Assembly (NCBI GenBank): GCA_037447435.1
Contig: JBBIGR010000045.1
Coordinates: 1 to 40,192 of the forward strand
Source: Fibrobacteria bacterium
GTDB lineage: Bacteria; Fibrobacterota; Chitinivibrionia; Chitinivibrionales; FEN-1185
Length of the DNA stretch: 40,192 nt
Reading direction: 5' to 3'
Shown here: positions 504-34,828 of the stretch, piece after piece
Position numbering within the stretch: position 1 is the stretch's first letter
How the letters are laid out: every line of letters begins with the position of its first letter
Notes under the pieces: model-generated
Told to the model about the DNA's origin: nothing
Seen by the model: only the letters and a program-made list of their open reading frames with translations
The model's database searches: none
Program-made: the position numbers and the translations under genes

Positions 504-518
504 ATGCGGCTTACTCCT

Positions 519-729
519 GACAGTCCGGCGCTGTCCCTCGATAGGGACTTCGAAGCGACGCCGCGTCCAAGAGAGAGAGACAGCATTTCTTTATTTTTTT
601 CCATTAATGCCCTCTTATTTACACCCATCATTTAATACTGGCAAATATCATTTTATGGTTATCGCTAAAGACGCAAGGGGTTCGACATCATTCAATAATG
701 CGAGCTTTTTTAATTATCCGTGATTTTAA
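519..729 (+). repeat. ~210-bp repeat upstream of toxin cassette 1 (GC-rich stem-loop plus short coding segment ending ...FFNYP*)
   Basis: Aligns with 8041-8251 from GACAGTCC to TGATTTTAA. Confidence 0.9.
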
Positions 730-1196
730 CCCTCAACCCCGGCCCTTCTCCCAATTATGGGAGAAGGGGGCATTATTTATAATGGATCGTATTTACAGAA
801 AGCCTGCTAAACCGAAATATGTCATTCAACTTGCGAGAGAACTTCGTAAGAATTCAACTGCAGCAGAAGTGACGCTATGGGAAAACCTTAAAAACAGAAA
901 ATTATTGGGCTTGAAATTTCGTAGACAAAAGCCAATTGGTCGATATATTGCAGATTTTTATTGCGCAGAAAAAGGATTTGCCATTGAGTTGGATGGCAGC
1001 TCGCATACTGACAAAATTCAATACGACAAAAATAGAGATGGCATTTTAGCCGCTTCCAATTTGACAATATTAAGGATTCCAAACAACCTGGTTCTAACGG
1101 ATCTTGATAGTGTTTTAAAAGAAATCTCTGAAAAATTACAAATGAGTTACACTCCTTCCCTTCTCCCATAATTGGGAGAAGGGCAAGGGATGAGGG
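730..1196 (+). mobile_element. DUF559 gene bracketed by palindromic terminal inverted repeats
   Basis: Left 730-768 and right 1158-1196 are inverted copies sharing an exact 26-bp core CCCTTCTCCC-AATTAT-GGGAGAAGGG, itself a hairpin. A second partial copy lies at 6043-6363. Confidence 0.65.
782..1171 (+). CDS. DUF559 / Vsr-like PD-(D/E)xK endonuclease domain protein
   Basis: ARELRKNSTAAEVTLW...KFRRQKPIGRYIADFYC...IELDGSSH...RD motifs. ATG 782 preferred over 698 because the extension reads through the hairpin repeat. Confidence 0.9.
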   Translation: MDRIYRKPAKPKYVIQLARELRKNSTAAEVTLWENLKNRKLLGLKFRRQKPIGRYIADFYCAEKGFAIELDGSSHTDKIQYDKNRDGILAASNLTILRIPNNLVLTDLDSVLKEISEKLQMSYTPSLLP

Positions 1197-1202
1197 GAAT
1201 AA

Positions 1203-2501
1203 ATGTCCGAACCTTACCAAGATATTCATAGCTACTATTTTATAAAGCCTAAAGCTGCGCCTGCGGATAATACACGCGTAAAATACAAAACAGACCCTGT
1301 ACCGGAGCCGCCGAAAGAGCCTACACCTATTGAAGCAAGATTATCCGATGCAAAATTCCTTCCGCCCAAAGATGGTGTAACTTTTAACGGCAAATGTAAA
1401 GCCCAGGTCAAAATCGAATATTTACGTCATACAATAATGACCAAAATCACCTTTTGCCTTTATTCCACCTACAAAGGCAAAACTGAAATAATGAAACCCG
1501 ATAAATTTGGGAATGAAAAAGACGGCATAGCCGAAACCGAGTTTACAATATTTTATCCGGATAACTATACCCAAGGTGACACGGTCGAATACTTTTTCAA
1601 GGCTTCGCACCGAAGAGGCGAAAAAGAGATTTCGAGCGAAAAGTTGACAATGCCTATGGCATCTGGCAAAACTATTAAAAAGGGCGATAAAGGCACAATC
1701 GTTGAGGAAATAAATATCAGACTTGCCGGATTTGGCGGCGGAGTTCCGAGCGACACTTTTGATGATAAAACAGAAGCAAAAGTAAAACAATTCCAAAAAG
1801 ATTATATGAAAATGGGAACCCCAACCGGCGAAGTGGATGAAGATACTGCAAAAAAAATTGATGAATTCGGAAAGAAATATACAGTCTCATTGGAGCTTTT
1901 TGATGGGTTAAAATGCCGATGTCAACCTCAATGCGGTGGCTTTGGAAAAGGCCGATTTAAAAACGAATATTTTGAAAAGCCTGGCAAAGACGGCAAACCC
2001 AAACCGCATGATGAATCAACACACAAGTATGAATACCCCGGAATGCATCGTTTTCTCCTATGGGCTGTACGCGGTTTGAATTATCATTTAGAAAAAGAAA
2101 CCACTATTTCTGCAAAACTAGATTTTTTTAGTTCTGGCTATAGGTGCAATGACCACCCATTAACAATAAACAGGAAAACTGTTAACCATATGGGAAAAGC
2201 CGCTGACATTCATTTTAAAATAAAGGCAGAAACAACTTGGGTAACGCCAAAAACCGATGCTGAAAATAATGCCTTATGTGAGAAAATCAGAAAAATATGT
2301 TTAAAGCCTGATGGTTTAAATGCGCAAATGGAATGGGGAAAAGCCAACAGAATTTCTTTAGAATCTACAGCCGACGGTGCAAAAACCTGGATACATGCTG
2401 ATGTTCGTAATTTTGAAAAAAAATATCTTGACGATAAATTCTTTTGTAAATCCATTCAAGACTTAGACGGCAAACCTTTGGAAACTTTAATAAAGGGTTA
2501 G
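1203..2501 (+). CDS. Conserved N-terminal domain + PG-binding domain + M15-type (Hedgehog/DD-peptidase fold) Zn peptidase; putative cell-wall toxin
   Basis: IKKGDKG..VEEINIRL...TEAKVKQFQ...TGEVD (PG_binding_1-like); SSGYRC...NHMGKAADI...WIHAD (M15 H/D/H ligands). No signal peptide. Residues 1-151 shared with 9017-10063. Confidence 0.85.
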   Translation: MSEPYQDIHSYYFIKPKAAPADNTRVKYKTDPVPEPPKEPTPIEARLSDAKFLPPKDGVTFNGKCKAQVKIEYLRHTIMTKITFCLYSTYKGKTEIMKPDKFGNEKDGIAETEFTIFYPDNYTQGDTVEYFFKASHRRGEKEISSEKLTMPMASGKTIKKGDKGTIVEEINIRLAGFGGGVPSDTFDDKTEAKVKQFQKDYMKMGTPTGEVDEDTAKKIDEFGKKYTVSLELFDGLKCRCQPQCGGFGKGRFKNEYFEKPGKDGKPKPHDESTHKYEYPGMHRFLLWAVRGLNYHLEKETTISAKLDFFSSGYRCNDHPLTINRKTVNHMGKAADIHFKIKAETTWVTPKTDAENNALCEKIRKICLKPDGLNAQMEWGKANRISLESTADGAKTWIHADVRNFEKKYLDDKFFCKSIQDLDGKPLETLIKG

Positions 2502-2503
2502 TT

Positions 2504-2914
2504 ATGAAATTCATTTTCTGTTTAGTTCTTTCAATCACTACTCTTCTAAATTGCCAAAATACTAAACAAAGCAACAACGAAAAGCAAACTGCGTCGGATC
2601 AGAAATTCCTTACTACTTCACAATGTATACCAACAAAGACATTTAACAGAAAAGATACTGTCGGAATATTTAAAGGACCGGTCGTTCATTTTTCCGACAC
2701 TTCAGCAGGTTCTGCAAGCGGTGGAATTATGATTAAAGATCAGGCCGGTGATTCAATTTCGTTTCTATTTTCCTATGGCGAATCGAAAAACATCGACGTA
2801 AAAAAGTTATCACTAGGCTCATGCATTGAAATCAATTTTCATGCTAAGGTTTTTCTTGAAGAGGGAATTGAAATCAACCGACTATTTTTTATTGATGATA
2901 TAAAATACCAATGA
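2504..2914 (+). CDS. Lipoprotein; candidate immunity protein of the upstream peptidase
   Basis: MKFIFCLVLSITTLLN-C lipobox-like signal; starts 2 nt after the upstream stop. Immunity role is inferred from position. Confidence 0.7.
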   Translation: MKFIFCLVLSITTLLNCQNTKQSNNEKQTASDQKFLTTSQCIPTKTFNRKDTVGIFKGPVVHFSDTSAGSASGGIMIKDQAGDSISFLFSYGESKNIDVKKLSLGSCIEINFHAKVFLEEGIEINRLFFIDDIKYQ

Positions 2915-2930
2915 ATAGGTTTATTACCAA

Positions 2931-3175
2931 ATGAAAATTATTAGTTTTTTATTATCGTTCTGTTTGGTTGCAATCCTTTTCACCTGCACAACCAATGCCC
3001 CAAATCCTTTTTCCCAGGACAAGGCACAGGCTTTTCTGCATTTTGCCAATGATTCATCCATACAATGATGGTTACAAACACCAGGCAATTATGGAGTACC
3101 GGCCATAATGATTTGGGACAATTAGGCGATGGAACAACAACTAACAGTTTAATTCCCAAATTGATTCTCCCATGA
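2931..3175 (+). pseudogene. Remnant of an RCC1-repeat lipoprotein (frameshifted start, large internal deletion)
   Basis: Shifted frame after ATG 2931 reads KLLVFLLSFCLVAILFT-CTTNAPNPF (lipoprotein signal). 3065-3175 reads MMVTNTRQLWSTGHNDLGQLGDGTTTNSLIPKLILP*, a typical terminal RCC1 blade. Stop overlaps the next ATG (ATGA). Confidence 0.7.
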
Positions 3176-4752
3176 AAAAACATAATAAATCAATTGTAAA
3201 TACAAAAAAAGCAATATCCTTCGACGTTCCTACGAAAGATCTGGGCAAGACTAAAGGGCATTTGTTCATGCTGGTTTTTCTTTTAGAGCTTATAACGATA
3301 ATTGTCTATAGTGGTACTTTAAAAAGTGATTTTGTTTATTATGATGACGAATCCTACATTACGACAAATGAGCATGTACTTCATGGCTTGACATTGAATG
3401 ATGTCAAATGGGCCTTTTCCGCCGTGGGTTATTCGGACAACTGGCATCCTCTCACTTGGATTTCCCATATGCTGGACGTCCAACTATTTGGCCTTAATCC
3501 TTCCGGACATCATTTAACAAACTTGATTTTCCACATTCTTGCGACATTGCTTCTTTTCGGCTTTCTGCAATATGCAACCGGCAAAGGCCGGCTTGCCGCA
3601 TTTATCGCAGGATTATTTGCTTTGCATCCGATGCATGTGGAATCCGTTGCCTGGGTTGCTGAACGCAAAGATGTCTTAAGTGCCGTGTTTGGATTTGCAA
3701 CTTTATGGGCTTATGTTTATTATGTCCGCAAACCTGATATAAAAAAATACGCGCTGGTTTTGGTCCTGTTTTGCCTCGGCCTTTTATCCAAGCCGATGCT
3801 GGTAACACTACCGTTTGTTTTGCTTCTTTTGGACTTCTGGCCGTTGGAACGTTTGACAATAAATATGCGTACCATCGGCAGACTCGTGATCGAAAAACTT
3901 CCGCTCTTTGTACTGGCGGCCGCATCGTCGATAATTACTATTATCGCCCAACATTCGGCCATTGCCAACATTGACAGATACGGCTTTTCGACAAGGATAT
4001 CAAACGCGATTATCTCGTATGGTGTATATGTAGGACAACTATTCTGGCCGGCAAAATTATCGGTGATATATCCATTTACAAAGCCCGATTCCTTTAAAGT
4101 TATTGTATGCGCGTTGCTTCTTATTGCAATTTCCACGGCAGCCATATGGTTAGGCAGAAAGAAAAAATATCTCATCACCGGCTGGCTTTGGTTTCTTGGA
4201 ACTTTGGTTCCTGTCATTGGTATATTGCAGGTAGGAAGTCAGGCACATGCGGACCGATATACGTACATCCCATATATCGGGCTTTTTATTATGATTGCAT
4301 GGGGTTTAAATGCCCTTGCGGAGAAAATGATAAGCAAGAATAAGGTTGTGTTGAACACCATTTTAAGCATCATCTTTTTAATCATGACTATTAAAACATG
4401 GGAACAAATCGGATATTGGAAAAACGGGACAACGCTTTTTTCTCATACCAATGAAGTTACACAGGGAAGTGAGATTGCTTATTATATCCTTGGCAATATC
4501 ATGTTGGAATCAGGAAGAACAGACGAGGCCATTGCGAATTATCAAAAAGCATTGAAAATTAATCCCAATAAAAGAAACGCTCTCAGCAATCTTGCCGGTG
4601 CTTATTATCAGAAGAAACAATTTTCTGATGCGATACCGCTTATACAAAGAGCGATCGCTTTGGAAAAAGCCGCCGGTGATGAAGTACAAGCAAAAGAAGA
4701 CGCCGGGAATCTCGAAATGCTTCTGCATGAAGACAGTTTGTATCAAAAATAA
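3172..4752 (+). CDS. TMTC-like GT-C membrane glycosyltransferase with C-terminal TPRs
   Basis: YDDESYI, WHPLTWISH, HPMHVESVAWVAERKD, ADRYTYIP motifs; many TM segments; short TPR tail. Confidence 0.85.
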   Translation: MKKHNKSIVNTKKAISFDVPTKDLGKTKGHLFMLVFLLELITIIVYSGTLKSDFVYYDDESYITTNEHVLHGLTLNDVKWAFSAVGYSDNWHPLTWISHMLDVQLFGLNPSGHHLTNLIFHILATLLLFGFLQYATGKGRLAAFIAGLFALHPMHVESVAWVAERKDVLSAVFGFATLWAYVYYVRKPDIKKYALVLVLFCLGLLSKPMLVTLPFVLLLLDFWPLERLTINMRTIGRLVIEKLPLFVLAAASSIITIIAQHSAIANIDRYGFSTRISNAIISYGVYVGQLFWPAKLSVIYPFTKPDSFKVIVCALLLIAISTAAIWLGRKKKYLITGWLWFLGTLVPVIGILQVGSQAHADRYTYIPYIGLFIMIAWGLNALAEKMISKNKVVLNTILSIIFLIMTIKTWEQIGYWKNGTTLFSHTNEVTQGSEIAYYILGNIMLESGRTDEAIANYQKALKINPNKRNALSNLAGAYYQKKQFSDAIPLIQRAIALEKAAGDEVQAKEDAGNLEMLLHEDSLYQK

Positions 4753-4760
4753 ATGTTTGT

Positions 4761-4789
4761 ATTTTCTTCTTTTCAAAGACCTTTTCTAT
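4761..4789 (+). repeat. 40-bp AT-rich motif, partial copy B
   Basis: ATTTTCTTCTTTTCAAAGACCTTTTCTAT matches the first ~28 nt of copies A and C. Confidence 0.6.
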
Positions 4790-4931
4790 CGTCCCAAAAA
4801 GGGCAGCGCTTTTTATATTGTCTTGGAAAAACAAATCTGACCTGACCTCAGGTTTCCTAAACCTGTGCTCTATAGACTTTGTGAAATCGCGATATATTCA
4901 TTAATATCGCGCGGCAATAAATTTAACTCGA

Positions 4932-5200
4932 CTTCGCCTCTTTTTACTTTACAAACCAATAAAAAACAATTGATGCGCTCTCTTTTTGGGAGAACGTCGA
5001 GTCTTTTTTAATCGAACGTAAGTCCATTGCACTCGAAGTCCTCTCTTTTAGAGTGAAATTTGACTCTAATTCATATATTAGTCTTCACTTTTTTACAGAA
5101 AATCGAGTCTTTTTAAATCGAGATCGCCGCAAATAGTCCCGACATCGACTCTTTTTGAGAGGATGAGCTCTCAATTTGAATTGAAACCGACTCTTTTTTT
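4932..5200. repeat. Degenerate 21-bp-period tandem array (core TCGAnTCTTTTT)
   Basis: Core-like TC-T-tract words at 4939, 4981, 5002, 5023, 5044, 5065, then after a +1 shift 5087, 5108, 5150, 5171, 5192. Confidence 0.7.
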
Positions 5201-5260
5201 GAAAAAGCCGTTTGAAAAAATATTGCGAGGCTCTGAAAAAGTGAAGCAATAGATTCTTTA

Positions 5261-5295
5261 GGAATCAGAGGAATAGCTATTATTCCCCTGATTCC
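5261..5295 (-). terminator. Stem-loop just downstream of 5303-5794
   Basis: GGAATCAG-A-GGAATA / TATTCC-C-CTGATTCC inverted repeat; weak U tract. Confidence 0.45.
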
Positions 5296-5302
5296 GGAAA
5301 TA

Positions 5303-5794
5303 TTACTCGGTTTTCTTTTCCTGCCCATTTGCTGGGGCATGACCGGCACCGGGAAATCGGGATTTCATATCCTGATACGCTTCTGCGGCGCCCGGAATAT
5401 TCATTTTAGTGGCATTTTTCACTGCATGGTAAAAAGAAAGGCTCGCGGAATAGGCTTCACTCCCTGCGAGAATTGCGGTGTCCTGCATCATGTCCGTGAG
5501 CTTTTGTAAAGGAACCAATAAAGATCGCAATTCCTGCACAGCCGCAAAATCCTTTTGCCATTCGGCCTGATTTATATAGCTGGGCACCAGATCAGCATGC
5601 TTACCCGCATACTGGAGGGATTTCATGACAAAAGAAATTGTTTTATCACCCATTTTCGGCAACTCATGCCTGTCGGCAGTCGATATTTTCACAAGCTTGG
5701 GAATAAGACCGGTTTCCAAGATCTTAATTGCCGCCTGATAGGCAGCCACTTCATCTTGTGTAAAATCAATTGACACGAGGTTCTCACCAGCCAT
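5303..5794 (-). CDS. Conserved all-helical hypothetical protein
   Basis: Strong RBS (AAAGGAG). LPKMGDK..F...P.Y...D...L...DT..LAGSEAY..L.FY...RFP pattern, recalled as a widespread uncharacterised family. Confidence 0.8.
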   Translation of the reverse strand: MAGENLVSIDFTQDEVAAYQAAIKILETGLIPKLVKISTADRHELPKMGDKTISFVMKSLQYAGKHADLVPSYINQAEWQKDFAAVQELRSLLVPLQKLTDMMQDTAILAGSEAYSASLSFYHAVKNATKMNIPGAAEAYQDMKSRFPGAGHAPANGQEKKTE

Positions 5795-6042
5795 AATTTA
5801 ACTCCTTTGTTAAAAGTGTTAATATTATTGTAGGTCTCATACCAAAGCCAATATATGAAATCCATATTAAACGGCGCAAGGTTTATATGCATCATTTTAA
5901 GTTAGATGCCGGATTGTCCCGTTTTTTTTAATTATCTTCTTTTTTATTCATTTTCTATGATTTAGATTATTGAACATTTTCTTGGAAAGTTCGCCGTTGA
6001 TATCAATAGAATATTAATGATTAAACATATCAACCGCATCCG

Positions 6043-6363
6043 ACCCTCAACCCCGGCCCTTCTCCCAATTATGGGGGAAGGGGGCATTATTTATAATGGA
6101 ACAGAAAGCCTGCTAAACCGAAATATGTCATTCAACTTGCGAGAGAACTTCGTAAGAATTCAACTGCAGCAGAAGTGACGCTATGGGAAAACCTTAAAAA
6201 CAGAAAATTATTGGGCTTGAAATTTCGTAGACAAAAGCCAATTGGTCGATATATTGCAGATTTTTATTGCGCAGAAAAAGGAATTGCCATTGAGTTGGAT
6301 GGCAGCTCGCATGCTGACAAAATTCAATACGACAAAAACAGAGATGGAATTTTAGCTGCTTCC
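6043..6363 (+). pseudogene. Second, broken copy of the DUF559 element (left repeat, 8-bp deletion after the ATG, 3' truncation)
   Basis: Near-identical to 729-1057. Lacks TCGTATTT after ATGGA (frameshift). Homology ends at GCTTCC 6363; no right repeat. Confidence 0.9.
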
Positions 6364-6422
6364 TGTTCACTGATAAATAAATCCATTCATTATGCCCCTT
6401 GTTGCGAATGCAACCGGGGTAT

Positions 6423-7886
6423 TTATTCTGAAAAAATAATCTGCTGCATTTTAATTAAAGAACCGGCTTGTATCCTAATGTAATAAACACCCATCGAGAA
6501 ATTATTCTTTTTAATATTCACGACAGGCAAAATGCCGGAATTATTCCCTTTATATAAAGTGGATATTTTGGCGCCGCCTACATCATATAAATCAACATCG
6601 ACGGTCCCTATTTGCTGAGGAACTCTAACCTGAATGGAAATGCTTTGAGATTCTTTTTTTATTTCAATGGCAATATTTTTTTGAACAAATTTTAAAGAAC
6701 CGTTTTGCAGGTTTCCGGTAGTGATATTCAAATTATACGACCTTAACTTATTAAAATCCTGAAGGTGCTGTAGAAACCACCCGTCATCACCCGTTCCTGA
6801 ATTGAGCGTATACAAAGTACCTTTACCCTGATTCGCACAACTGGCAAGCATGCCGATAAAACCGGCCTGTATAAAATCATTGACATGAGTAAAGAAATAC
6901 GGATAAAAAGTATCTTCATATCTATTGTCGGTATTCGGAAGCCCGGTATGCCCAAGACATATTTGCCAACCGAAGGCGGGCAGATCTACCGTCTGCGAAA
7001 CACGCTTGCACCAGGCAACATAATTGGCCATGTCGCTATCGGTCCAGTAATAATTATCCGTGCTCATATTTACTTTTGCATAGCCTGCATCTGCGCCGTA
7101 TTTTTCGAACCCGACAAAATCCCCCCGGTATTTTGTTCCCAGAAGAAGATTGATATACTCAGCCGTTTTATCGGCTGCGGCGAGAACTTTGTCCGATGAA
7201 TTTTTAAAAAGAATAACATTGGTCGCGCCTGCCGGCTGATATGCCCAGAATGCCATAAGAATACCGACATAAGCATCAGGATCAAAAGTTTTTATTGTTT
7301 TTATCAGGGCTGCCGGATAATTCTGTAATTTATTATCAAATTCCGTTAGCCAACTACAGCCCAAATTATTAAGATAGCAAGTTTGATTCAAATTAGTTTT
7401 CCCTAAATTCGCCTGGTCGTTTTGGAGTAAATAGCCCCATACATCGGGCTCTAGTACGTAAATTGGTGACGTACCTTTAGAACTATCGACCGCAAATTTT
7501 AAAGCCGTAAAGAGTTTTTTCATGTATGTCTGATCCGAGGCATTCTGAAGGACCGCAGCCAAACCATCACCACCGTTTTGAAGCATGTAAGCCGTAAACG
7601 CAGGCTTAAGGCCTTTATAGCCCTTTTTTGCATAGTTAGTCCAAGGCGTGAAAAGCATGGTAGATATTTCATCGGGATTATTGATATAAACATATCTTCT
7701 GTCAATTCTGATTCCTTTATCGATGGCAGCTTTCAGTTGATCTTCCCATAATAAAGCGGTACCGTTACTGACCAGGCCGAAACAATAATCATCCCATTTT
7801 GCCGGCGGGGTTCCCCAGCCGCAATATGATGAAATAAAAAGAAGTAAAAGAATTGCACTGCTTTTTAGTAATTTATTGTAACCCAT
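6423..7886 (-). CDS. Secreted putative glycoside-hydrolase-like protein with T9SS/FlgD-like C-terminal tail
   Basis: Signal peptide; aromatic-rich domain with LEPDVWGY, EKYGADAG, GWQI motifs; tail VDLYDVGG.KI...GVYYIRI. Family not resolved. Confidence 0.65.
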   Translation of the reverse strand: MGYNKLLKSSAILLLLFISSYCGWGTPPAKWDDYCFGLVSNGTALLWEDQLKAAIDKGIRIDRRYVYINNPDEISTMLFTPWTNYAKKGYKGLKPAFTAYMLQNGGDGLAAVLQNASDQTYMKKLFTALKFAVDSSKGTSPIYVLEPDVWGYLLQNDQANLGKTNLNQTCYLNNLGCSWLTEFDNKLQNYPAALIKTIKTFDPDAYVGILMAFWAYQPAGATNVILFKNSSDKVLAAADKTAEYINLLLGTKYRGDFVGFEKYGADAGYAKVNMSTDNYYWTDSDMANYVAWCKRVSQTVDLPAFGWQICLGHTGLPNTDNRYEDTFYPYFFTHVNDFIQAGFIGMLASCANQGKGTLYTLNSGTGDDGWFLQHLQDFNKLRSYNLNITTGNLQNGSLKFVQKNIAIEIKKESQSISIQVRVPQQIGTVDVDLYDVGGAKISTLYKGNNSGILPVVNIKKNNFSMGVYYIRIQAGSLIKMQQIIFSE

Positions 7887-8040
7887 AAATACTCCTTGAA
7901 TGCTTGTTGCACCTGTTACCAGAAAAATACGTTATTGGAATAAATCGATAATGCTTATGTATATTCTATTTTACAATGAAAGCGATAAACATATCAGGGA
8001 TTTCATGAGGAAAACTTTGCCTTAGGGAAAGTTTGTTTTT

Positions 8041-8251
8041 GACAGTCCCGCGTTGTCCCACGGCAGGGACTTCGAAGTGCTGCGTGTCCATGAGAGGGCG
8101 GCAGCCCTTTTTATATTTCTCTCTCTATTAATACACCCCATATTTACCATCATTTAGTACCGGCAAATATCATTTTATGGTTATCGCTAAAGATGCAAGC
8201 GGTTCAACTTCATTTAGCAATGCAAGCTTTTTTAATTATCCATGATTTTAA
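8041..8251 (+). repeat. ~210-bp repeat upstream of toxin cassette 2
   Basis: Aligns with 519-729. Confidence 0.9.
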
Positions 8252-8278
8252 TGATGAAAAATATAGGAGTTCAGAGCC

Positions 8279-8626
8279 ATGCAAATTGATACCAACCTTT
8301 CGGTTACAACCGTAACGCCTGATATTATCGATTATGTTGTCGAGAAAATTGTCTTGGCCGTGCATCCATTAAAAATCATTCTTTTTGGTTCACAAGCAAG
8401 GCACGACAACAGAGAGAACAGTGATATTGATTTACTTATAATCACCAAAACAGGTGAGGATAGTGAGCAAATTCGCCTTGAAATCGAACGAACACTTCGA
8501 GGTAGACGTTTTGGCATTGATCTCTTAGTACGAACTCCCGCAGATTTGGAATGGAACATCGAAGCGGAAAATCCATTCTATACGAATGAAATATTTCGCG
8601 ATGGGCAGGTTATGTATGAGTGCTGA
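8279..8626 (+). CDS. Minimal nucleotidyltransferase (MNT) antitoxin-like protein
   Basis: LFGSQARHD....SDIDLLI and IDLLV motifs; RBS AGGAG. Confidence 0.9.
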   Translation: MQIDTNLSVTTVTPDIIDYVVEKIVLAVHPLKIILFGSQARHDNRENSDIDLLIITKTGEDSEQIRLEIERTLRGRRFGIDLLVRTPADLEWNIEAENPFYTNEIFRDGQVMYEC

Positions 8627-9017
8627 AGGGAAAAACAGGCTAATCGAAGATTGGTATCGATTCGCACGTGAAGATCTTGCCGCAGCACGTGAACTTGCTA
8701 GTCGCGGTTCATTTCATCATCAAGCGTGCCTTCTTTCTCAGCAATCGAGTGAGAAATATCTGAAAGCATATTTACTTTCAAAAGGTTGGAAACTCGCAAA
8801 AACACACGAGCTTTCACAGCTTGTTAGCGAATGCTGCATTTATGATGAAACATTTCAAGAATTATACTTAGATTGTGAACTATTAAACAAATATATCATA
8901 ACAGGTCGATATCCTGGTGACCAGCCTTTTGATAGCACCAGCGATAATGATTCTAAGAAAGCCATTGAGGCGGCAAGCAACGTGGAAAAATTTATTTTAG
9001 GAAAAAGGTTTTCTTAA
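8616..9017 (+). CDS. HEPN domain protein (MNT-HEPN pair)
   Basis: AREDL..A...QQSSEKYLKAYL...KTHEL..L...RYP. ATG 8616 overlaps the MNT end; stop overlaps the next start (TAATG). Confidence 0.9.
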   Translation: MSAEGKNRLIEDWYRFAREDLAAARELASRGSFHHQACLLSQQSSEKYLKAYLLSKGWKLAKTHELSQLVSECCIYDETFQELYLDCELLNKYIITGRYPGDQPFDSTSDNDSKKAIEAASNVEKFILGKRFS

Positions 9018-10063
9018 TGTCCGAACCGTACCAAGATATTCACAGCTATTATTTCATAAAGCCACAAGCTGCGCCTGCGGACAATACACGCGTAAAATAC
9101 AAAACAGACCCTGTACCGGAACCGCCTAAAGAGCCTGCACAAATAGAAGTAAGGCTTTCGGAAGGAAAATTCCTGTCGCCCAAAGAAGGGGTAAGTTTCA
9201 ACGGCAAATGTAAAGCCCAGGTCAAAGTCGAATATTTACGCCATTCAATAATGACCAAAATCACCTTTTGCCTTTATTGCACCTACAAAGGCAAAACGGA
9301 AATAATGAAACCCGACAAAGTAGGGAACGAAAAAAACGGCATAGCCGAAACCGAGTTTACAATTTTTTATCCGGATGATTATACCCAGGGTGAAACGGTT
9401 GAGTACTTTTTCAAGGCTGCGCATCGAAGAGGCGAGAAAGAAGTTATGAGCGAGAAAATTACAATGCCCCTTAAAGGAAATGGTAGTTTTTGCTTTCCGC
9501 TTAATTTCAAATTTCAAGATAAAGGATATAAGCAAGGTGCTCGCGCTTTTGGATCATCAAGAAATAATGGGGAACGGGCGCATGCCGGATGCGATCTTTA
9601 TGCTCCCGCAGGTGAAAATATTTATGCTGTCGCCGATGGCGAAGTAAAAGCATACCATGATTTTTATATGCAAACTTATGCTATGGTAATAGATCACAAA
9701 GATTATATCGTTAGATATGGGGAAATTCAGCCTCCTAAGGACCATGATTATGGCAATAACCCGCCAGATGATTTACGTAAAGGAATGGCAAGCAATGTTA
9801 TTATTGGCTCAAAAGTAAAAAAAGGCCAACATATTGCATACGTTGGACAATTACGGCAAAAGAATTCAATAACGGGTGCCTTAGAAAACTATAAACAAAC
9901 TATGCTACATTTTGAAATGTTCAAAGGAATTGCCGGAGGCAATCCCATATTATTAACCGCAAAGGATAATAAAGAATCTGATTTTGTTGCACCGCTAAAT
10001 TATGAAAGACGGAAAGATTTGCTAAATCCAACTCAAAATCTTGATAATGCAACTTCAATTTAG
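9017..10063 (+). CDS. Conserved N-terminal domain + M23 metallopeptidase; putative cell-wall toxin
   Basis: FGSSR....RAHAGCDLY (HxxxD), IYAVADGEV, VKKGQHIAYVG, LHFEM. No signal peptide. 131/151 aa identical to the N-terminus of 1203-2501 by manual alignment. Confidence 0.87.
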   Translation: MSEPYQDIHSYYFIKPQAAPADNTRVKYKTDPVPEPPKEPAQIEVRLSEGKFLSPKEGVSFNGKCKAQVKVEYLRHSIMTKITFCLYCTYKGKTEIMKPDKVGNEKNGIAETEFTIFYPDDYTQGETVEYFFKAAHRRGEKEVMSEKITMPLKGNGSFCFPLNFKFQDKGYKQGARAFGSSRNNGERAHAGCDLYAPAGENIYAVADGEVKAYHDFYMQTYAMVIDHKDYIVRYGEIQPPKDHDYGNNPPDDLRKGMASNVIIGSKVKKGQHIAYVGQLRQKNSITGALENYKQTMLHFEMFKGIAGGNPILLTAKDNKESDFVAPLNYERRKDLLNPTQNLDNATSI

Positions 10064-10072
10064 GACACAAAA

Positions 10073-10609
10073 ATGAAGAGAAAATTCTTTATCAGTATAT
10101 CAGCAATTTTCTTTTTAATTAATTTTGCATCTTTTTCATTCTCTGCAGATTTCGGGAAAAATATTCAAGTTAAAAAAGATTTAAAAAACATAATTTTAAT
10201 CGCAGATTTTAATGGTGACCAGCTAAAAGATACTGTTGTGTTATTGGAAATCGGTGCAAATAGTCTACCTTTAAAAGAATGTGCTATCTCTAATCCTTGG
10301 TATGGAAAATCAATTAGACAAGATGGCGAGCCATTATCAATTGGAATCATATCATCAAATAAAGCATTAAATAAACCATCATTGACCATAATTCATGATT
10401 CTTCGTTTTTTTCAACGCCAATATGGACTTCAAATAAAATACCTATAGATATAGTCACAAAAGGCACAGCTAAATTTAAGCAGTGGAAAGAAACTGTTTC
10501 GGATTTAAAAAATGATGCAATCGTTTTAGGTACTGAAGCCGGAATTGATATTTTGATTTATTGGAATGGAAAAGCCTATATGCTTTTTCAACCAAATGAA
10601 GAACCATAA
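10073..10609 (+). CDS. Exported protein; candidate immunity protein of the upstream M23 peptidase
   Basis: Sec signal MKRKFFISISAIFFLINFASFSFS; DFNGDQLKD loop; 9 nt after the upstream stop. Immunity role is inferred. Confidence 0.7.
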   Translation: MKRKFFISISAIFFLINFASFSFSADFGKNIQVKKDLKNIILIADFNGDQLKDTVVLLEIGANSLPLKECAISNPWYGKSIRQDGEPLSIGIISSNKALNKPSLTIIHDSSFFSTPIWTSNKIPIDIVTKGTAKFKQWKETVSDLKNDAIVLGTEAGIDILIYWNGKAYMLFQPNEEP

Positions 10610-28739: not shown

Positions 28740-29366
28740 ATGGACGATCTGACAAAAAAACAGGAAAACATTCTTCTCTTTATACGGAAATACTGGACCA
28801 AATACTCATTGTCTCCTACATACAAGGAAATACAGGCTCATTTCGGCTTCGATTCGCTCAATTCGGTACAAAACCATGTGAAGGCTTTGCTGAAAAAAGG
28901 CCATGTGCGGGGCATTATCGATAAGCATGGCCGTAAGCGAATGCTTGTTCCTACACGTAAGCAACACCCTGTCGACGCTTCTGTTCCGCTGCTTGGCACC
29001 ATTGCCGCAGGAGCGCCGATCGAGGCAATTGAAAATGTTGAAACAAAACTCGATTTATCGTCACTCGGTATAAACAACAGCGGAGAGGAATTTTTCGCCC
29101 TTCGCGTGCGCGGTGAAAGCATGATAGAGGCGCATATTATGAGTAACGACATTGTCGTCATCAAAAAACAACCATCTGTCAATGCCAACGATATTGCGGC
29201 CGTCATATGGAACAATGAAGCGACCCTCAAATACGTGCACAAAACGCCCAAAGGCATCGTACTTGTGCCGGCAAACAGTACCATGAAACCGCTGCCGGTC
29301 GACTCGGCAGCAACATCGCAGTTTTCCGTGCTCGGCAAAGTCGTACAGGTAATTCGCCGATGTTAA
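28740..29366 (+). CDS. lexA: SOS repressor LexA
   Basis: LTKKQ..IL...SPTYKEI wHTH; IAAG cleavage site; GESM (Ser) and ATLK (Lys) dyad. Confidence 0.95.
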   Translation: MDDLTKKQENILLFIRKYWTKYSLSPTYKEIQAHFGFDSLNSVQNHVKALLKKGHVRGIIDKHGRKRMLVPTRKQHPVDASVPLLGTIAAGAPIEAIENVETKLDLSSLGINNSGEEFFALRVRGESMIEAHIMSNDIVVIKKQPSVNANDIAAVIWNNEATLKYVHKTPKGIVLVPANSTMKPLPVDSAATSQFSVLGKVVQVIRRC

Positions 29367-29429
29367 CATTATTTGCGTCCAATAATTTCCTTTGCCTTGA
29401 AAGAGCGGCATGAAAAGCGGTTACGATAT

Positions 29430-32400
29430 ATGCACTTCATATCATTGCACAACCATTCGACGTTTTCATTTTATGCAGGCGTATGCACGCCGGAAGACCT
29501 TGCCGTGCGCGCCAAACAGCTCGGCATGCCCGCCATTGCATTAACAGACATCAACCGCATGAGCGGGCTAATCCGTTTTTATTGTAAATGTAAAGAAATC
29601 GGCGTTAAGCCGATTTTAGGCGTAGAGCTTTCGGAACAAAAAAACGACAATCGCCGCCTCGTTTGTCTTGCCAAAAATGCCGGCGGCTACGCCGACATAT
29701 GCGAAATAATCACAAATCGTCATTTACAGAGCGACACATTCACTTTCGGCACGGCCATGCAACGACCGTGGCCCAATTTGCTTTTCATTTCGGCAAACCC
29801 CGATATATTGACTTTACTCGCATCGACGCCGAATAAAAACAACCTGTACGCGGAGCTTGTCAATAATTCGCGGGAAACCAGGCTGCATAGCTGGACCGTT
29901 GCGCAAACCGCGCAACGGCTCGGTATACCGCTTGTCGTTTCGAACGCCCCGTTCTTTCTTGACAAGACCGATTGGGAAACGCACAGGATACTGAGTGCCA
30001 TCGGCCTTTGCTCAACCGTGTCGAGACTTAAAGCCCACGAATATGCCTCGCCGCAGGCTTATCTGCGGCCGCACGACGATATGGTTAAACTGTTCCCAAA
30101 CCATAGTGAGGCGATTGAAAATACGCAAAAGATAGCAGACCAATGCACTGTGACGCTCGATCTTGGCAAATGGATAATGCCGCAAGTGCCCCTTCCCGGC
30201 ACCATGAGTGCCGAAGCCCTGTTACGCGAGCTCGCGTATACGGGCCTTGCCCGCAACTACGGCGCTTCGCCTCTGTATGAGCAGGCAAAGCGCATACAGG
30301 ATATGGAACTTGACGTTATCGCAAAGCTCGGATACCCGTCTTATTTCCTTATTGTCAAAGACATACGCGACTGGGCGGGCAATAGCCTGCGCGCCGGATT
30401 CCGCACGCCAAAAGACTGCACGGTATTGCGCGGCAGCGCCGCAAATTCCATGACGTTTTTCAATATCGGCGTCAGCGATTTGGATCCCATCAAATACGAT
30501 TTGCATTTCCAGCGTTTTTTGAACGAAGACCGGGCCTCACCGCCGGATGCGGATTTGGACTTTGGTTGGGACGAACGTGAAAAAGCGCTCGAGTATCTAG
30601 TTAACAAATGGGGACGCGACCGCGTGGCCATAACCTGCACCACCAATCATTTCAGGAGACGCGCCGCGTTCCGCGAAACAGCCAAGGTATTCGGCTACAG
30701 TGAGGAGCAGGTAACGCAAATCCTCAAAAGCCACAAAACAAAGACAAAACGCATCGACGACGACGAAGTGGCTCATTTGCTTGCGCTTGCAGAAACAATA
30801 CGGGGCAAGCCCCGTTTCTTAGGCCAGCATCCCGGCGGCGTGCTTATTACCAATCAACCGATATGGCGCCATGTCGCCTGCGAATACTCGCGCGCCGCGC
30901 CGCACGGCATGCCGAAGGCTACGTCGTTGGATAGCGGCAGGATCATCACGCAAATCGACATGCATAGCGGCATCGACGAGCTGGGCCTCATCAAATTCGA
31001 CATACTGGGTAACGGCTCCATTTCCGTATTACGCGATTCGCTCGCCCAGCTGCATAATCAGGGCATGCCGGACCCAAACGTATCGAATCTCGACATGTGC
31101 TATAACGACCCGCTGGTACGCGACATGATACGCAACGGCAGAACGCGCGGTATTTTTTATATCGAAAGCCCTGCGCAAATTCGGCTGAACAAAAAAGCCC
31201 AGGCAGACACATTCGAGGAAATCGCAATAACGTCCAGCCTTGTGCGGCCGGCAGGAGCGCAATACACCAAAACATTCGTCGAGCGCCATCGCAAAGCAAA
31301 ACTAGGTATTGTCGACTGGGAATATTTACATCCCTCGCTCGAGCCCATTCTCCATGAAACGCATGACGTATGCGCATATCAGGAAGACGTGACCAAGATA
31401 TGCCATCAAGTCGCAGGATTATCCTATAAAAAAGCCGATCGCATACGTAAAATGATGAATTCGCTGCATGAGGGCGTCCTTTCCGGCAGCGACTATGCCG
31501 CTGTGGCAAAGGAATTCATGGATGGCTGCATACGGCATAGCGGCCTCAGCACGTCGCAATCGATCGAGTTATGGGAGCGCGTCAGCAGTTTCACGGGATT
31601 CTCTTTTTGCAAATCTCACAGCGCAAGCTATGCGCAATTATCGTTCAAATGCGCATGGCTCAAGGCCCATTACCCTGCGCAGTTTTTATCGAGCGTCATA
31701 AGCAACAATCACGGATTTTATTCCCGCGACACCTATATCGACGAAGCGAGGCGATTCGGCATACGCATTTTGCCGATCAATATAAACAGTTCGAATATTC
31801 CGTATTTCGGCAAGCACAATTGGATGCGCTTGGGCCTCATGCATGTGCGGATGCTCTCGAAAAAAAGCCTCGAGGCCATCATGCGCGAGCGAAAAGAACG
31901 AAGTTTCCGCAACCTCATCGACTTCGTACAGCGCGTTCCCATCGGCAAAAAGGAAATCGAAAACCTCATTTTGGTCGGTGCATTCGACGGTTTTGGCCTG
32001 AGCCAACCGGAATCGCTGTTTCTGCTCGACGACATCTACGATAAAACCTGCCCGTACAACAGCGCGACGTCGCTGTTTCCGTCGAACGCATTGTTGACAC
32101 AAAATATTCTTCACCCCGGCTTGTCCGATTATACACTGACGCAAAAATGCCTCAATGAACTTCGACTTTTGGGCTTTATGGTATCGGGCAACATTCTGGA
32201 CATACTCGATTTACACCCGGCCCATAAAAACGCCGTCGCAGCGGCGGACATCGGCCGCCGGTCCAGAGGGGAAACTATTAAAATATTCGGATGGCCGATT
32301 ACCAACAGGATACATATGGTCAAAGCGGAGCGGCCCATGCTCTTTGTGACGCTTGAAGACAAAACGGAATGCGTCGACGTTATTCTCTGGCCCGATGTTT

Positions 32401-32624
32401 ACGAGCGATATGCGGACGTGATGTCTGAAAGCGGGCCGTTTGAAATATGGGGACGCGTCGGCGAGGATTTCGGTACCTACACGTTGGAGGCGCAGACCAT
32501 ACGCTCGGTTCAGTGGTCGCCAGCAATGGTCGATTTTAAAGAAGCATCCCAACGGCTCGCCAACTCGTACAAGGCGGCAGACTATGTATATGCAGATGTT
32601 AAGAACCATGCAGTCGCAGCCTAA
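29430..32624 (+). CDS. dnaE2: DNA polymerase III alpha-family, error-prone DnaE2-like
   Basis: PHP HNHSTFS, RGSAANS, PPDADLD, HPGG, KFDILG, FCKSHSASYA, terminal OB fold. ~1064 aa without a long C-terminal extension; directly follows lexA. Confidence 0.85.
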   Translation: MHFISLHNHSTFSFYAGVCTPEDLAVRAKQLGMPAIALTDINRMSGLIRFYCKCKEIGVKPILGVELSEQKNDNRRLVCLAKNAGGYADICEIITNRHLQSDTFTFGTAMQRPWPNLLFISANPDILTLLASTPNKNNLYAELVNNSRETRLHSWTVAQTAQRLGIPLVVSNAPFFLDKTDWETHRILSAIGLCSTVSRLKAHEYASPQAYLRPHDDMVKLFPNHSEAIENTQKIADQCTVTLDLGKWIMPQVPLPGTMSAEALLRELAYTGLARNYGASPLYEQAKRIQDMELDVIAKLGYPSYFLIVKDIRDWAGNSLRAGFRTPKDCTVLRGSAANSMTFFNIGVSDLDPIKYDLHFQRFLNEDRASPPDADLDFGWDEREKALEYLVNKWGRDRVAITCTTNHFRRRAAFRETAKVFGYSEEQVTQILKSHKTKTKRIDDDEVAHLLALAETIRGKPRFLGQHPGGVLITNQPIWRHVACEYSRAAPHGMPKATSLDSGRIITQIDMHSGIDELGLIKFDILGNGSISVLRDSLAQLHNQGMPDPNVSNLDMCYNDPLVRDMIRNGRTRGIFYIESPAQIRLNKKAQADTFEEIAITSSLVRPAGAQYTKTFVERHRKAKLGIVDWEYLHPSLEPILHETHDVCAYQEDVTKICHQVAGLSYKKADRIRKMMNSLHEGVLSGSDYAAVAKEFMDGCIRHSGLSTSQSIELWERVSSFTGFSFCKSHSASYAQLSFKCAWLKAHYPAQFLSSVISNNHGFYSRDTYIDEARRFGIRILPININSSNIPYFGKHNWMRLGLMHVRMLSKKSLEAIMRERKERSFRNLIDFVQRVPIGKKEIENLILVGAFDGFGLSQPESLFLLDDIYDKTCPYNSATSLFPSNALLTQNILHPGLSDYTLTQKCLNELRLLGFMVSGNILDILDLHPAHKNAVAAADIGRRSRGETIKIFGWPITNRIHMVKAERPMLFVTLEDKTECVDVILWPDVYERYADVMSESGPFEIWGRVGEDFGTYTLEAQTIRSVQWSPAMVDFKEASQRLANSYKAADYVYADVKNHAVAA

Positions 32625-33822
32625 TGCGCCCCTCAGCGCACCGCTTTTTTGCGCAATTGATTTTCCCGCGTTCATCGCACAAGTCATAAGCGCTTACCAT
32701 GCGCAATACCGCAACACGGCATTTGTCGTCATTAGCCAGAATGCGCATAGCCACAAAAGCACGGTGGTTTCATGCTCGTCACCGGCAATGGCCCTTGGCG
32801 TAGAATACAATATGCCGCTGCATGTCATACAACGGCGATGGCCGCGTATTGGCATCGTGCAGCGCGATAAGGACCTTGAAATCGCCGCCTGCGAAGAAAT
32901 CGGCCGAGTGCTCGATCGCTACTCCCCGCAATACGGCGTGCGCGAAAACGGCTCGTGCATTATCAATTTATCAAGAACGCCGTCGCAACGGACCTTGCCG
33001 ATTTTGACCATTGCAAAAAAAATCCGCGACAATCTGACGGAAGCAGTACCCGTGCAAGACATTGCCGTGGGAATGGCGGGGAAAGAGGCCATGGCCCGTA
33101 TCATGGCGCGCATGGCGCGTCCCCGCGGCGTTTGCATGTGTGAAAACGGTCTCGAAGAGCCGACGCTGCAAAATCTTGATGTGGCAATGCTTCCCGGTCT
33201 TTCCGGCCCTTGCAGGATACGACTTGCCGCGTATGGAATCAAACGCATCGGGCAAATCCAGGCCATAACAAAAGAAGCACTGGTCGTGCGTTTCGGTAAT
33301 GAGGGCGAAAAACTGTACAGCCTTGCGCATGGCAGTGCCGGCCGCACGCAAACGTGTGCGCCCGCGCGCTATTGCGAAGAAACGATTCTCGACAAAGACA
33401 TCAACGATGCCGCATGCATCATGAAAAAAGTCAGGTTGACTGTCGACAAACTGTGCTTTTCCCTGAAAAACACGAACACGCATATCGACAGATACACTAT
33501 GACTATCTGCTATTCCGACAATAAAAAATCAAAAAAAACCATACGGCTGCCGCATATGACCAATGATTTTGTTTTTTTGTCAGAATATGCGCAGCGGGCG
33601 TTTACAACATTGTACGTACGACGGGTTGCGTTGCGCTCTATACGGATTGAGGTAAAAAATCCGCAGCCTGATCCTTGTCAAACGAGTTTATTTGAAACTT
33701 CTTGGGAGCAAAAACAAGCGGCATTGACGCGACAAATCGTGAAGATCCGCAATAAGAACAGTTTTGATGCGGTACTGTCCGGTGCAGACATCACCCCGGT
33801 CCGCCCTGCGCAAAAAGCGTAG
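32608..33822 (+). CDS. Y-family polymerase homolog, probably catalytically inactive (ImuB-like)
   Basis: CAIDFPAFIAQV N-terminal motif; the expected S-x-D-E position reads RENGSCIINLS; little-finger region; QTSLF clamp motif. Start estimated at ATG 32608. Confidence 0.75.
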   Translation: MQSQPNAPLSAPLFCAIDFPAFIAQVISAYHAQYRNTAFVVISQNAHSHKSTVVSCSSPAMALGVEYNMPLHVIQRRWPRIGIVQRDKDLEIAACEEIGRVLDRYSPQYGVRENGSCIINLSRTPSQRTLPILTIAKKIRDNLTEAVPVQDIAVGMAGKEAMARIMARMARPRGVCMCENGLEEPTLQNLDVAMLPGLSGPCRIRLAAYGIKRIGQIQAITKEALVVRFGNEGEKLYSLAHGSAGRTQTCAPARYCEETILDKDINDAACIMKKVRLTVDKLCFSLKNTNTHIDRYTMTICYSDNKKSKKTIRLPHMTNDFVFLSEYAQRAFTTLYVRRVALRSIRIEVKNPQPDPCQTSLFETSWEQKQAALTRQIVKIRNKNSFDAVLSGADITPVRPAQKA

Positions 33823-33868
33823 ACTATAGTACCGAGGTAACGAGTGTATAATTCAGATATAGGTACTA

Positions 33869-34828
33869 ATGAATAACAAAATACCATGGCAACCGCTTAA
33901 AGTCCCATTGCAGGATAGTACCCAAAGCAATATATACGTTGGAACATCCGGCTATTATTACGACGACTGGGTCGGCATATTCAACCCGCCCAGACCAAGC
34001 CGCAAACAAATCGAATCCATGACCGACGAACAAAAAGCCGATCAGGACCGGTTGCGATTCTATCAGAAATATTTTTCTTTTGTAGAAATCAACAATACGT
34101 TTTATGCCGAACCGTCCCTTGCCCACTTTTTAGACATCGAATCGCGCAGCAAAGAGAACATGCTGTTCAGCGTAAAAGTACACAAGGACATTTCGCATAC
34201 AAAAGATAACAATATCGCCCTTGCCCAAGACATGATGCGCCGGCACATCACCGCAGTGAGCCCGCTTATAGAAAGCGGCAGGTTCTTCAGTTTTCTCATT
34301 CAACTGGAAGACCATACCTTCCGGGCACAGAAAAAACTCGATTTTTTATTACGCGTTGCCTCTGTTGCGTTATCGGAACATGTCGATGTTCATATTGAGT
34401 TTCGTCATAAAAGCTGGCACGACGAACAGGTACTGACGGCGCTCAAAAACAGCGGCATCGGCATTTGCAATACCGAAATACCGCCGGTGCCGCATGCGTT
34501 TCCGCTCAAAGCATATGCGACTACCGATAAGGGGTACATACGCTACAGCGGCTTAAACCTTGAAAACTGGTATCCGCGACCCGGTCAAAAAGCGATCACC
34601 GCCAAAGAACGAATTGCGCAACGCAATGCACGGTACGATTACGAATATTCCGACGAAGAATTATCGCAGCGGGTAAGAGGCCAGTTAGTGCTTCATACAA
34701 AAACGACGAAAACCGGCATCGCTTTTAACAATCATTTCCGGGCCAAAGCGATACGGAATGCGATTAAAAACATGAAACTGCTTCTTGACAAACTGAATAA
34801 TGCCGAGTCGCCGTCATTGGCCGGTTAA
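33869..34828 (+). CDS. DUF72 (YecE/YunF-like) TIM-barrel protein
   Basis: YVGTSGYYYDDWVG, VEINNTFY, IEFRHKSW, YIRYSG, YDYEYSDEEL, FNNH. Confidence 0.9.
   Translation: MNNKIPWQPLKVPLQDSTQSNIYVGTSGYYYDDWVGIFNPPRPSRKQIESMTDEQKADQDRLRFYQKYFSFVEINNTFYAEPSLAHFLDIESRSKENMLFSVKVHKDISHTKDNNIALAQDMMRRHITAVSPLIESGRFFSFLIQLEDHTFRAQKKLDFLLRVASVALSEHVDVHIEFRHKSWHDEQVLTALKNSGIGICNTEIPPVPHAFPLKAYATTDKGYIRYSGLNLENWYPRPGQKAITAKERIAQRNARYDYEYSDEELSQRVRGQLVLHTKTTKTGIAFNNHFRAKAIRNAIKNMKLLLDKLNNAESPSLAG

Follow-up and report, generated by a model that had tools for sequence, protein, structure and literature searches.

Two putative effector genes of a Fibrobacteria contig and their shared N-terminal region: a candidate lineage-specific delivery module for type VI secretion

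The subject of this analysis is a stretch of 40,192 nucleotides from a Fibrobacteria bacterium of the order Chitinivibrionales (contig JBBIGR010000045.1, positions 1 to 40,192, forward strand; assembly GCA_037447435.1), called the window throughout, and in particular two of its genes which probably encode antibacterial type VI secretion system (T6SS) cargo effectors. Both genes lie on the forward strand, at 1203-2501 (effector 1, 432 residues) and at 9017-10063 (effector 2, 348 residues), with coordinates as given in the preliminary description. In a pairwise alignment 131 of the first 151 residues are identical, and beyond residue 151 the identity is only 0-2 per 10 residues. As the DNA similarity has the same limits, running from the ATG to codon 151, the shared N-terminus with its sharp switch to unrelated C-terminal domains (here called tips), as previously described, is borne out at the protein and the DNA level.

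The tip of effector 1 (1656..2501, forward strand) combines a PG_binding_1 domain (residues 164-218), which passes the Pfam cut-off with an E value of 9e-8, with a probable M15-like zinc peptidase. No Pfam match to the M15 family was obtained in this tip. Among 14 relatives, however, R314, H329 and D335 are invariant and H398 is nearly invariant, one of the 14 shows a weak M15_3 match (E 0.06), and a comparison with phage protein families gave a weak endolysin match (E 0.004). The peptidoglycan-binding part of the earlier assignment therefore stands on Pfam, and the M15-type label on motifs. The tip of effector 2 (9470..10063, forward strand) also passes the Pfam cut-off, as Peptidase_M23 (E 3.5e-10), and matches solved M23 structures weakly. 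It retains HxxxD (H189-x3-D193) and carries RYGE (RYxE) and MLHFE at the other motif positions, where we take the classical M23 motifs to be YxH and HxH. This variant form, which qualifies the original M23 assignment, is common to the seven database proteins with the same tip.

Each effector gene is closely followed by a small gene on the same strand that was described as encoding an exported protein, and this holds for both: the gene at 2504..2914 begins 2 nt behind effector 1 and has a hydrophobic N-terminus with an LLNC lipobox, and the gene at 10073..10609 begins 9 nt behind effector 2 and has a Sec-like N-terminus (both by eye). Neither protein matched Pfam or NCBIfam. The first is predicted to be an immunity lipoprotein for effector 1; its three BLAST matches outside the host genome all lie behind the same toxin tip. 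The second is predicted to be a periplasmic immunity protein for effector 2. Of its four relatives, one is found just behind a short gene of the family that has no visible M23 domain and two are found inside runs of exported genes. As the relatives are few and so placed, the pairing with the M23 tip is less well supported.

In a structure model of residues 1-151, residues 1-44 are disordered and residues 45-151 form seven strands without a helix. In effector 1 the leader (residues 1-44; 1203..1334, forward strand) consists of an aromatic motif with Tyr5 and a disordered linker rich in Pro, Glu and Lys, where the predicted model confidence (pLDDT) is below 50 at residues 9-30, and the conserved domain of the family (residues 45-151; 1335..1655, forward strand) is an immunoglobulin (Ig)-like beta-sandwich with a pLDDT of 79-90. 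By alignment to effector 1, the leader and the Ig-like domain of effector 2 occupy 9017..9148 and 9149..9469 of the forward strand. The leader plus beta-rich region of the preliminary description is thus retained as a two-part make-up, and its Pro-rich ADNTRV leader, which occurs in one subclade only, is dropped as a family motif.

The shared region gave no match in Pfam or NCBIfam, the N-terminal domain none in PHROG, and both profiles none in a search of the sequences of the PDB; the ESM Atlas returned three unnamed clusters at 0.82-0.86, to be read as leads only, and no named match. In addition, we found no description of the domain in the literature, where subscription papers and bioRxiv supplements were outside reach and a large effector catalogue could list it, and no T6SS study of this phylum. 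The assertion that the N-terminus lies outside described families accordingly held. Structure comparison places residues 45-151 among Ig or macroglobulin-like folds. Foldseek gave generic Ig matches only, and MIX, FIX, PIX and WHIX were not among the matches listed. Among the tied top matches, the best compact fit was obtained with a domain of the Bacteroides fragilis T6SS effector BtaeB (9JDH; Z 10.0, root-mean-square deviation 2.9, 103 aligned residues), which is also present in the VgrG cargo complex 9JG8 (Z 9.2). At 8% identity this match is treated as a lead and not as homology.

The host genome contains five copies of the domain: the two in the window, one on contig C22 (94% identity over 151 residues), one on C21 (35%) and one on C47. 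The three additional copies were found with E values of 1.5e-81 to 1.5e-10, the next best value among 46,721 open reading frames (ORFs) being 0.037, and because of them the shared region is not a chance similarity. The C22 copy carries a VanY-like tip and is accompanied by an exported gene; behind it lie a headless remnant similar to the central part of the C47 effector and genes for a lysozyme and the inhibitor LprI, by gene content an orphan toxin-immunity cassette. The same genome encodes the T6SS core components TssA, B, C, D, E, F, G, I, K, L and M and a PAAR protein, with one match each for Hcp and VgrG. The genes are distributed over four contigs as TssA-B-C-Hcp, TssE-F-G, TssK-L-M and VgrG with PAAR, and form at least five small groups amid housekeeping genes (contigs C1, C12, C25 and C28). 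C12 also carries, at 61997-69025, a second effector cluster in which a PAAR gene is followed by genes for a 785-residue protein without Pfam match, for DcrB and for a protein whose tip is transglutaminase-like; the two long proteins begin with Ig-like stretches (by eye).

Beyond this genome, the family comprises 19 close proteins and 137 cluster representatives, and the region is nearly always N-terminal. In detail, 111 of 132 new proteins (10 fragments or partial matches and the 11 weakest were omitted), 15 others and 62 proteins from the loci were scanned with Pfam; one protein, P0131, was set aside as its match was confined to the Pro-rich linker. A first scan of genomes with a single protein as query confirmed none of 43 candidates. 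The domain profile matches 64 of 296 genomes, spread over several families of the one phylum, with one to nine copies per positive genome. TssC, which was used as the T6SS marker outside the host genome (the full core was checked in the host genome alone), is found in 115 of the 296. The co-occurrence with T6SS that had been set as a check is complete, although kin are not independent: all 64 domain-positive genomes are TssC-positive, 51 genomes have TssC only, 181 have neither, and none of the 181 TssC-negative genomes has the domain. Within the order the corresponding numbers are 38 with both, none with the domain only, 23 with TssC only and 20 with neither, with the same dependence among kin, for which reason P values are given no weight. 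One unpublished genome (G253) is counted among both the 64 and the 115 and bears on no other statement. Of seven loci of named relatives, six are labelled Fibrobacteres, Fibrobacterota or Chitinivibrionales and one, on a 2.3-kb contig, Bacteroidales.

The tips are highly diverse, as the preliminary description had proposed to check, with seven classes among the 19 closest proteins and 40 clusters among 82 long tails. Recognised tips include M23, M15, M74, VanY, NlpC/P60, CHAP, lysozyme, pesticin, SLT, amidase, Lipase_3, Tle1, amidohydrolase and OmpA with PG_binding_1; many further tips have no Pfam name, and a hydrophobic tip class of 580 residues appears by eye to be pore-forming. No anti-eukaryotic tip was recognised in the family. 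A Tle1 catalytic domain is fused to one member, a DUF3289 toxin adjoins another, and genes for DUF4123 proteins, which are spike-loading chaperones, lie immediately upstream in two loci. Fifteen short members keep the N-terminal region although they lack a toxin. Short members with only a transthyretin-like tip (by eye, with weak Pfam matches) are located ahead of LysM- or lipase-bearing genes, and are proposed to act, once secreted, as adaptors for the toxin of the following gene. The original notion of a polymorphic toxin family consequently stands, and its restriction to cell-wall toxins does not, given the lipase, Tle1, amidohydrolase and pore-like tips and the toxin-free adaptor-like members. 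Two short members behind DUF4123 genes (L079 7578-8228 and L080 6359-7024) end with a C-terminal PFCEECE motif, a motif of VgrG tails.

Export-likeness of family members and their neighbours was judged by a crude hydrophobicity rule. A hydrophobic N-terminus was found in none of 82 domain ORFs vs 37% of 3,356 background ORFs, which agrees with the claim that the effectors lack a signal peptide. Among 63 members with a close downstream gene, this gene is exported-like in 31 of 48 long members and in none of 15 short ones; where the first gene is non-exported and the second is visible, the second is exported-like in 11 of 17 cases. When 42 toxin-neighbour pairs were compared with each other (861 comparisons), similar downstream genes shared the toxin tip in 11 of 14 pairs. 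Together with the relatives of the 2504-2914 product, found only behind the same tip, this upholds the view that exported downstream genes move with the toxin tip. The amidohydrolase tip has the same immunity family under a leader or an Hcp head (L038, L136, L102), and relatives of the effector 1 tip lie directly behind PAAR genes in three Pfam-confirmed loci. Tandem headless cassettes of the latter tip, each with an immunity gene and with a common short N-terminal arm, were observed at L147 and L163 (genome G015) and L149 (genome G016).

Members consist, from the N-terminus, of a head, a linker that is acidic or rich in Pro, the Ig-like domain and a variable tip, and the head varies as well. 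In 108 of 160 non-Hcp members a Trp is found at position 4-7, followed by a linker of Glu, Pro and Lys. Other members have a degenerate Hcp in frame ahead of the domain. There are three of these among the 111 scanned database proteins, and 15 Hcp-fused domain ORFs in nine genomes, obtained from 28 loci that were chosen for an extended Hcp or for known matches and hence not blindly. Hcp-fused members lack the leader, its place being taken by Hcp with a linker of the same kind. No fusion to VgrG or PAAR was seen among the 111 and 62 proteins scanned. On a quick and poorly resolved tree, built from 189 rows and 117 columns and with 81 of its 186 branches open, the Hcp fusions appear at four places. 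In addition, the leader resembles the C-terminal D-x-W of Hcp, 11 junctions, many of them from kin, falling between the 75th and 100th percentiles when ranked among 806 D-x-W sites; this likeness is modest and no more than suggestive.

A sister Ig family, with Hcp or a Cys-rich sequence as its head (L167-L170, L172-L174, L178, L185 and L190-L197), is present in 40 of the 296 genomes, three of them TssC-negative. It was kept apart on this ground and since its match to the main profile is weak (probability 13.6%), and it is probably a parallel effector class. Two unusual head arrangements were also noticed by eye: a helix-turn-helix-like head of about 60 residues replaces leader or Hcp in L078 (2848-5793) and P0073, and in L171 (1582-2502) and L186 (1437-2279) an Hcp-like domain is oddly paired with a type IX secretion-like tail.

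From these sequence comparisons we conclude, with a probability of roughly 0.8, that both window genes encode orphan antibacterial T6SS cargo effectors with exported immunity partners. The front end probably loads the proteins into the T6SS, because the family is found only in bacteria that own one, and the shared region would then be an effector-loading marker. The effectors would be synthesised in the cytoplasm and attached to the tube-spike by their N-terminal region, and firing would deliver the tip into the periplasm of a neighbour, where it may cut peptidoglycan or lipids or form pores, while in kin the downstream periplasmic or lipoprotein partner would block it. The head is the exchangeable part and would therefore be the address, with Hcp as the dock: an aromatic leader of about 15 residues might do non-covalently what a fused Hcp does covalently, with the Ig domain as a compact spacer. 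Given T6SS delivery, we regard docking on Hcp as somewhat more probable than docking elsewhere; with the doubt about delivery included, its chances fall slightly short of even.

Several observations weigh against parts of this picture. Catalytic activity is a prediction for both tips, and the M23 tip is a variant. The neighbour is exported-like in just 65% of long members vs 37% of the background, and half of the pairs with similar tips (11 of 22) have unrelated downstream genes. The domain is missing from 51 of the 115 TssC-positive genomes, kin inflate the co-occurrence, and the profile includes some C-terminal columns, its weakest match having an E value of 7e-4. In the host genome ClpV stays under its cut-off (811 vs 885 bits). 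As regards Hcp, the early Trp is absent in 52 of the 160 leaders, both window copies having Tyr, and many members exceed 800 residues, which is large for a tube lumen. BtaeB, finally, belongs to a VgrG-bound complex, favouring the spike over Hcp, and Ig folds of this type are common, 60 chains reaching Z 8 or more and BtaeB being tied with complement C3.

It is against this background that the strongest alternative has to be seen, namely that the proteins are T6SS effectors which, in the manner of PIX and WHIX, use the Ig domain or the leader to dock on the VgrG-PAAR spike, fusion to Hcp being a separate route. Besides the BtaeB structures (9JDH, 9JG8), the VgrG binding described for PIX (10.1101/2023.07.16.549128) and WHIX (PMC12135965), as far as the consulted parts of these sources go, is in line with such docking. 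The DUF4123 neighbours point the same way, and the large members would suit the spike better. On the other hand, the absence of VgrG or PAAR fusions from the 111 and 62 proteins, next to Hcp fusions at four tree places, speaks for Hcp, and the BtaeB match, at 8% identity, is tied with unrelated Ig domains. If T6SS delivery is granted, the spike is a doubtful but serious candidate for the docking site; as an overall explanation it is unlikely.

Still less probable is that the shared region of such effectors is a folding spacer, or the relic of a lost Hcp fusion, and that a separate adaptor does the loading. T6SS-linked proteins do have Ig-like domains of comparable appearance in other places, and the likeness of the leader to the Hcp C-terminal D-x-W junction would be expected of a relic; retention of the region at the N-terminus of the 15 toxin-free short members, the Trp conserved in 108 of 160 leaders and the absence of a chaperone gene near most copies (two DUF4123 cases among the loci examined) argue against it. 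An accessory role, in which the proteins would hold the secretion apparatus in place or reshape the wall of the producing cell under control of a regulatory partner encoded downstream, is improbable to a greater degree. T6SS anchoring proteins carry OmpA-like and PG_binding_1 domains, as do many members of the family, and such a role would also explain the co-occurrence with TssC. However, it is at odds with the lack of a signal peptide (0 of 82), the lipase, Tle1 and pore-like tips, the 40 tip clusters, the headless toxin-inhibitor cassettes, the one to nine copies per genome and the absence from 51 TssC-positive genomes. That the tips resemble endolysin families hardly rescues the idea of phage endolysins or of extracellular contractile injection system cargo, as the N-terminal domain has no PHROG match, none of 27 candidate viral stretches was confirmed, the genome has no phage sheath family (controls were positive), and no phage genes were seen around the two window copies.

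Returning to the preferred reading, that of T6SS cargo with Hcp as the dock, a speculative and rather unlikely extension is that the C-terminal D-x-W tail of Hcp gave rise to a portable Hcp-loading signal of about 15 residues for multidomain effectors and adaptors, the free family having arisen from fusions that lost Hcp while its tail stayed behind as a docking tag.

Some further features of the window surround the two effector genes. A non-coding element of 216 nt precedes effector 1 (518..729, forward strand), and its second copy, 81% identical in a DNA comparison, precedes effector 2 (8040..8251, forward strand); the genome holds no further copy, and Rfam gave three matches to the element, all under the gathering score. 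It is possibly a shared promoter region of both effector operons. The element is separated from each effector by small selfish genes that we regard as passengers. Ahead of effector 1 this is a DUF559 endonuclease gene (698..1196, forward strand; Pfam) with 39-nt inverted repeats at 730-768 and 1158-1196, which looks like a small mobile unit; a truncated second DUF559 copy is found at 6043-6483, and similar repeats occur on contigs C37, C42 and C93. Ahead of effector 2 it is a nucleotidyltransferase-HEPN gene pair (8279..9017, forward strand; Pfam), which we take to be of the toxin-antitoxin type. Farther away, at 28740-34828, LexA-like, error-prone DnaE2-like, ImuB-like and DUF72-like genes follow each other (by eye) as a mutagenesis cassette.

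Orphan T6SS effectors are found mainly by way of N-terminal delivery modules, whose mode of loading is described in PMC13323088 as an open question. In a phylum that is mostly uncultured, the present domain flags the effectors of 64 genomes and exposes about 40 tip clusters with their immunity genes, many of the tips without a Pfam name. Moreover, natural Hcp-fused and free members with the same toxin-immunity pair allow covalent and non-covalent tube loading to be compared. An Hcp-tail origin, if true, would make the leader the shortest signal for T6SS loading known to us and, among the markers compared, the sole one tied to Hcp.

Among known systems, which are compared here as far as the consulted parts of the respective sources describe them, Hcp-fused members share the architecture of Hcp-ET proteins (PMC13323088), and the window proteins have no Hcp domain; the difference from Hcp-ET is that one conserved Ig module occurs here with a fused Hcp as well as free behind a short leader. 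Stacked Hcp rings are able to enclose extended cargo (PMC13323088), and V1 effectors of Bacteroides bind Hcp via an N-terminal module (PMC13035841). The latter module is, however, a folded domain of about 70-80 residues used with a specialised Hcp2-Hcp3 ring (PMC13035841), whereas the host genome has one Hcp. BtaeB (9JDH, 9JG8), itself a T6SS cargo effector, has an Ig-like domain like the family, although that domain is internal (254-383), 8% identical and without a profile match in PDB sequences. With regard to MIX and FIX, the shared region gave no Pfam or NCBIfam match, with the limit that these libraries may not hold MIX or FIX models.

A close parallel in organisation is RIX of the Vibrionaceae, a module of 55 residues, arginine-rich and with two helices, which is fused to PAAR and VgrG or takes their place and has many anti-eukaryotic tips (PMC10435454). 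Like the present family, it is an orphan, lineage-restricted N-terminal module with polymorphic tips, a downstream immunity gene and near-total T6SS co-occurrence, and it too has short members with a transthyretin-like tip ahead of a toxin-immunity pair and occasional fusions to structural components (PMC10435454). Our family differs from RIX in its leader plus all-beta Ig domain, in its swaps with Hcp and in a consensus that is not Arg-rich; identity with RIX was considered and rejected, as the model has no helix and the composition is not Arg-rich. PIX (about 140 residues) is likewise an orphan module with immunity genes within 25 bp, defined by a profile of Pse3 residues 1-140 in Enterobacterales and with mostly cytoplasmic toxins (10.1101/2023.07.16.549128). 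WHIX has almost exclusively peptidoglycan-targeting tips and is a bipartite motif of several hundred residues that forms a cavity (PMC12135965), with which a beta-sandwich of 107 residues is at odds, the comparison being by description only. Both are described as VgrG-binding and, unlike the present family, as proteobacterial. On these comparisons the family is probably a new, lineage-specific T6SS delivery module, of a kind already published and comparable to RIX, PIX and WHIX.

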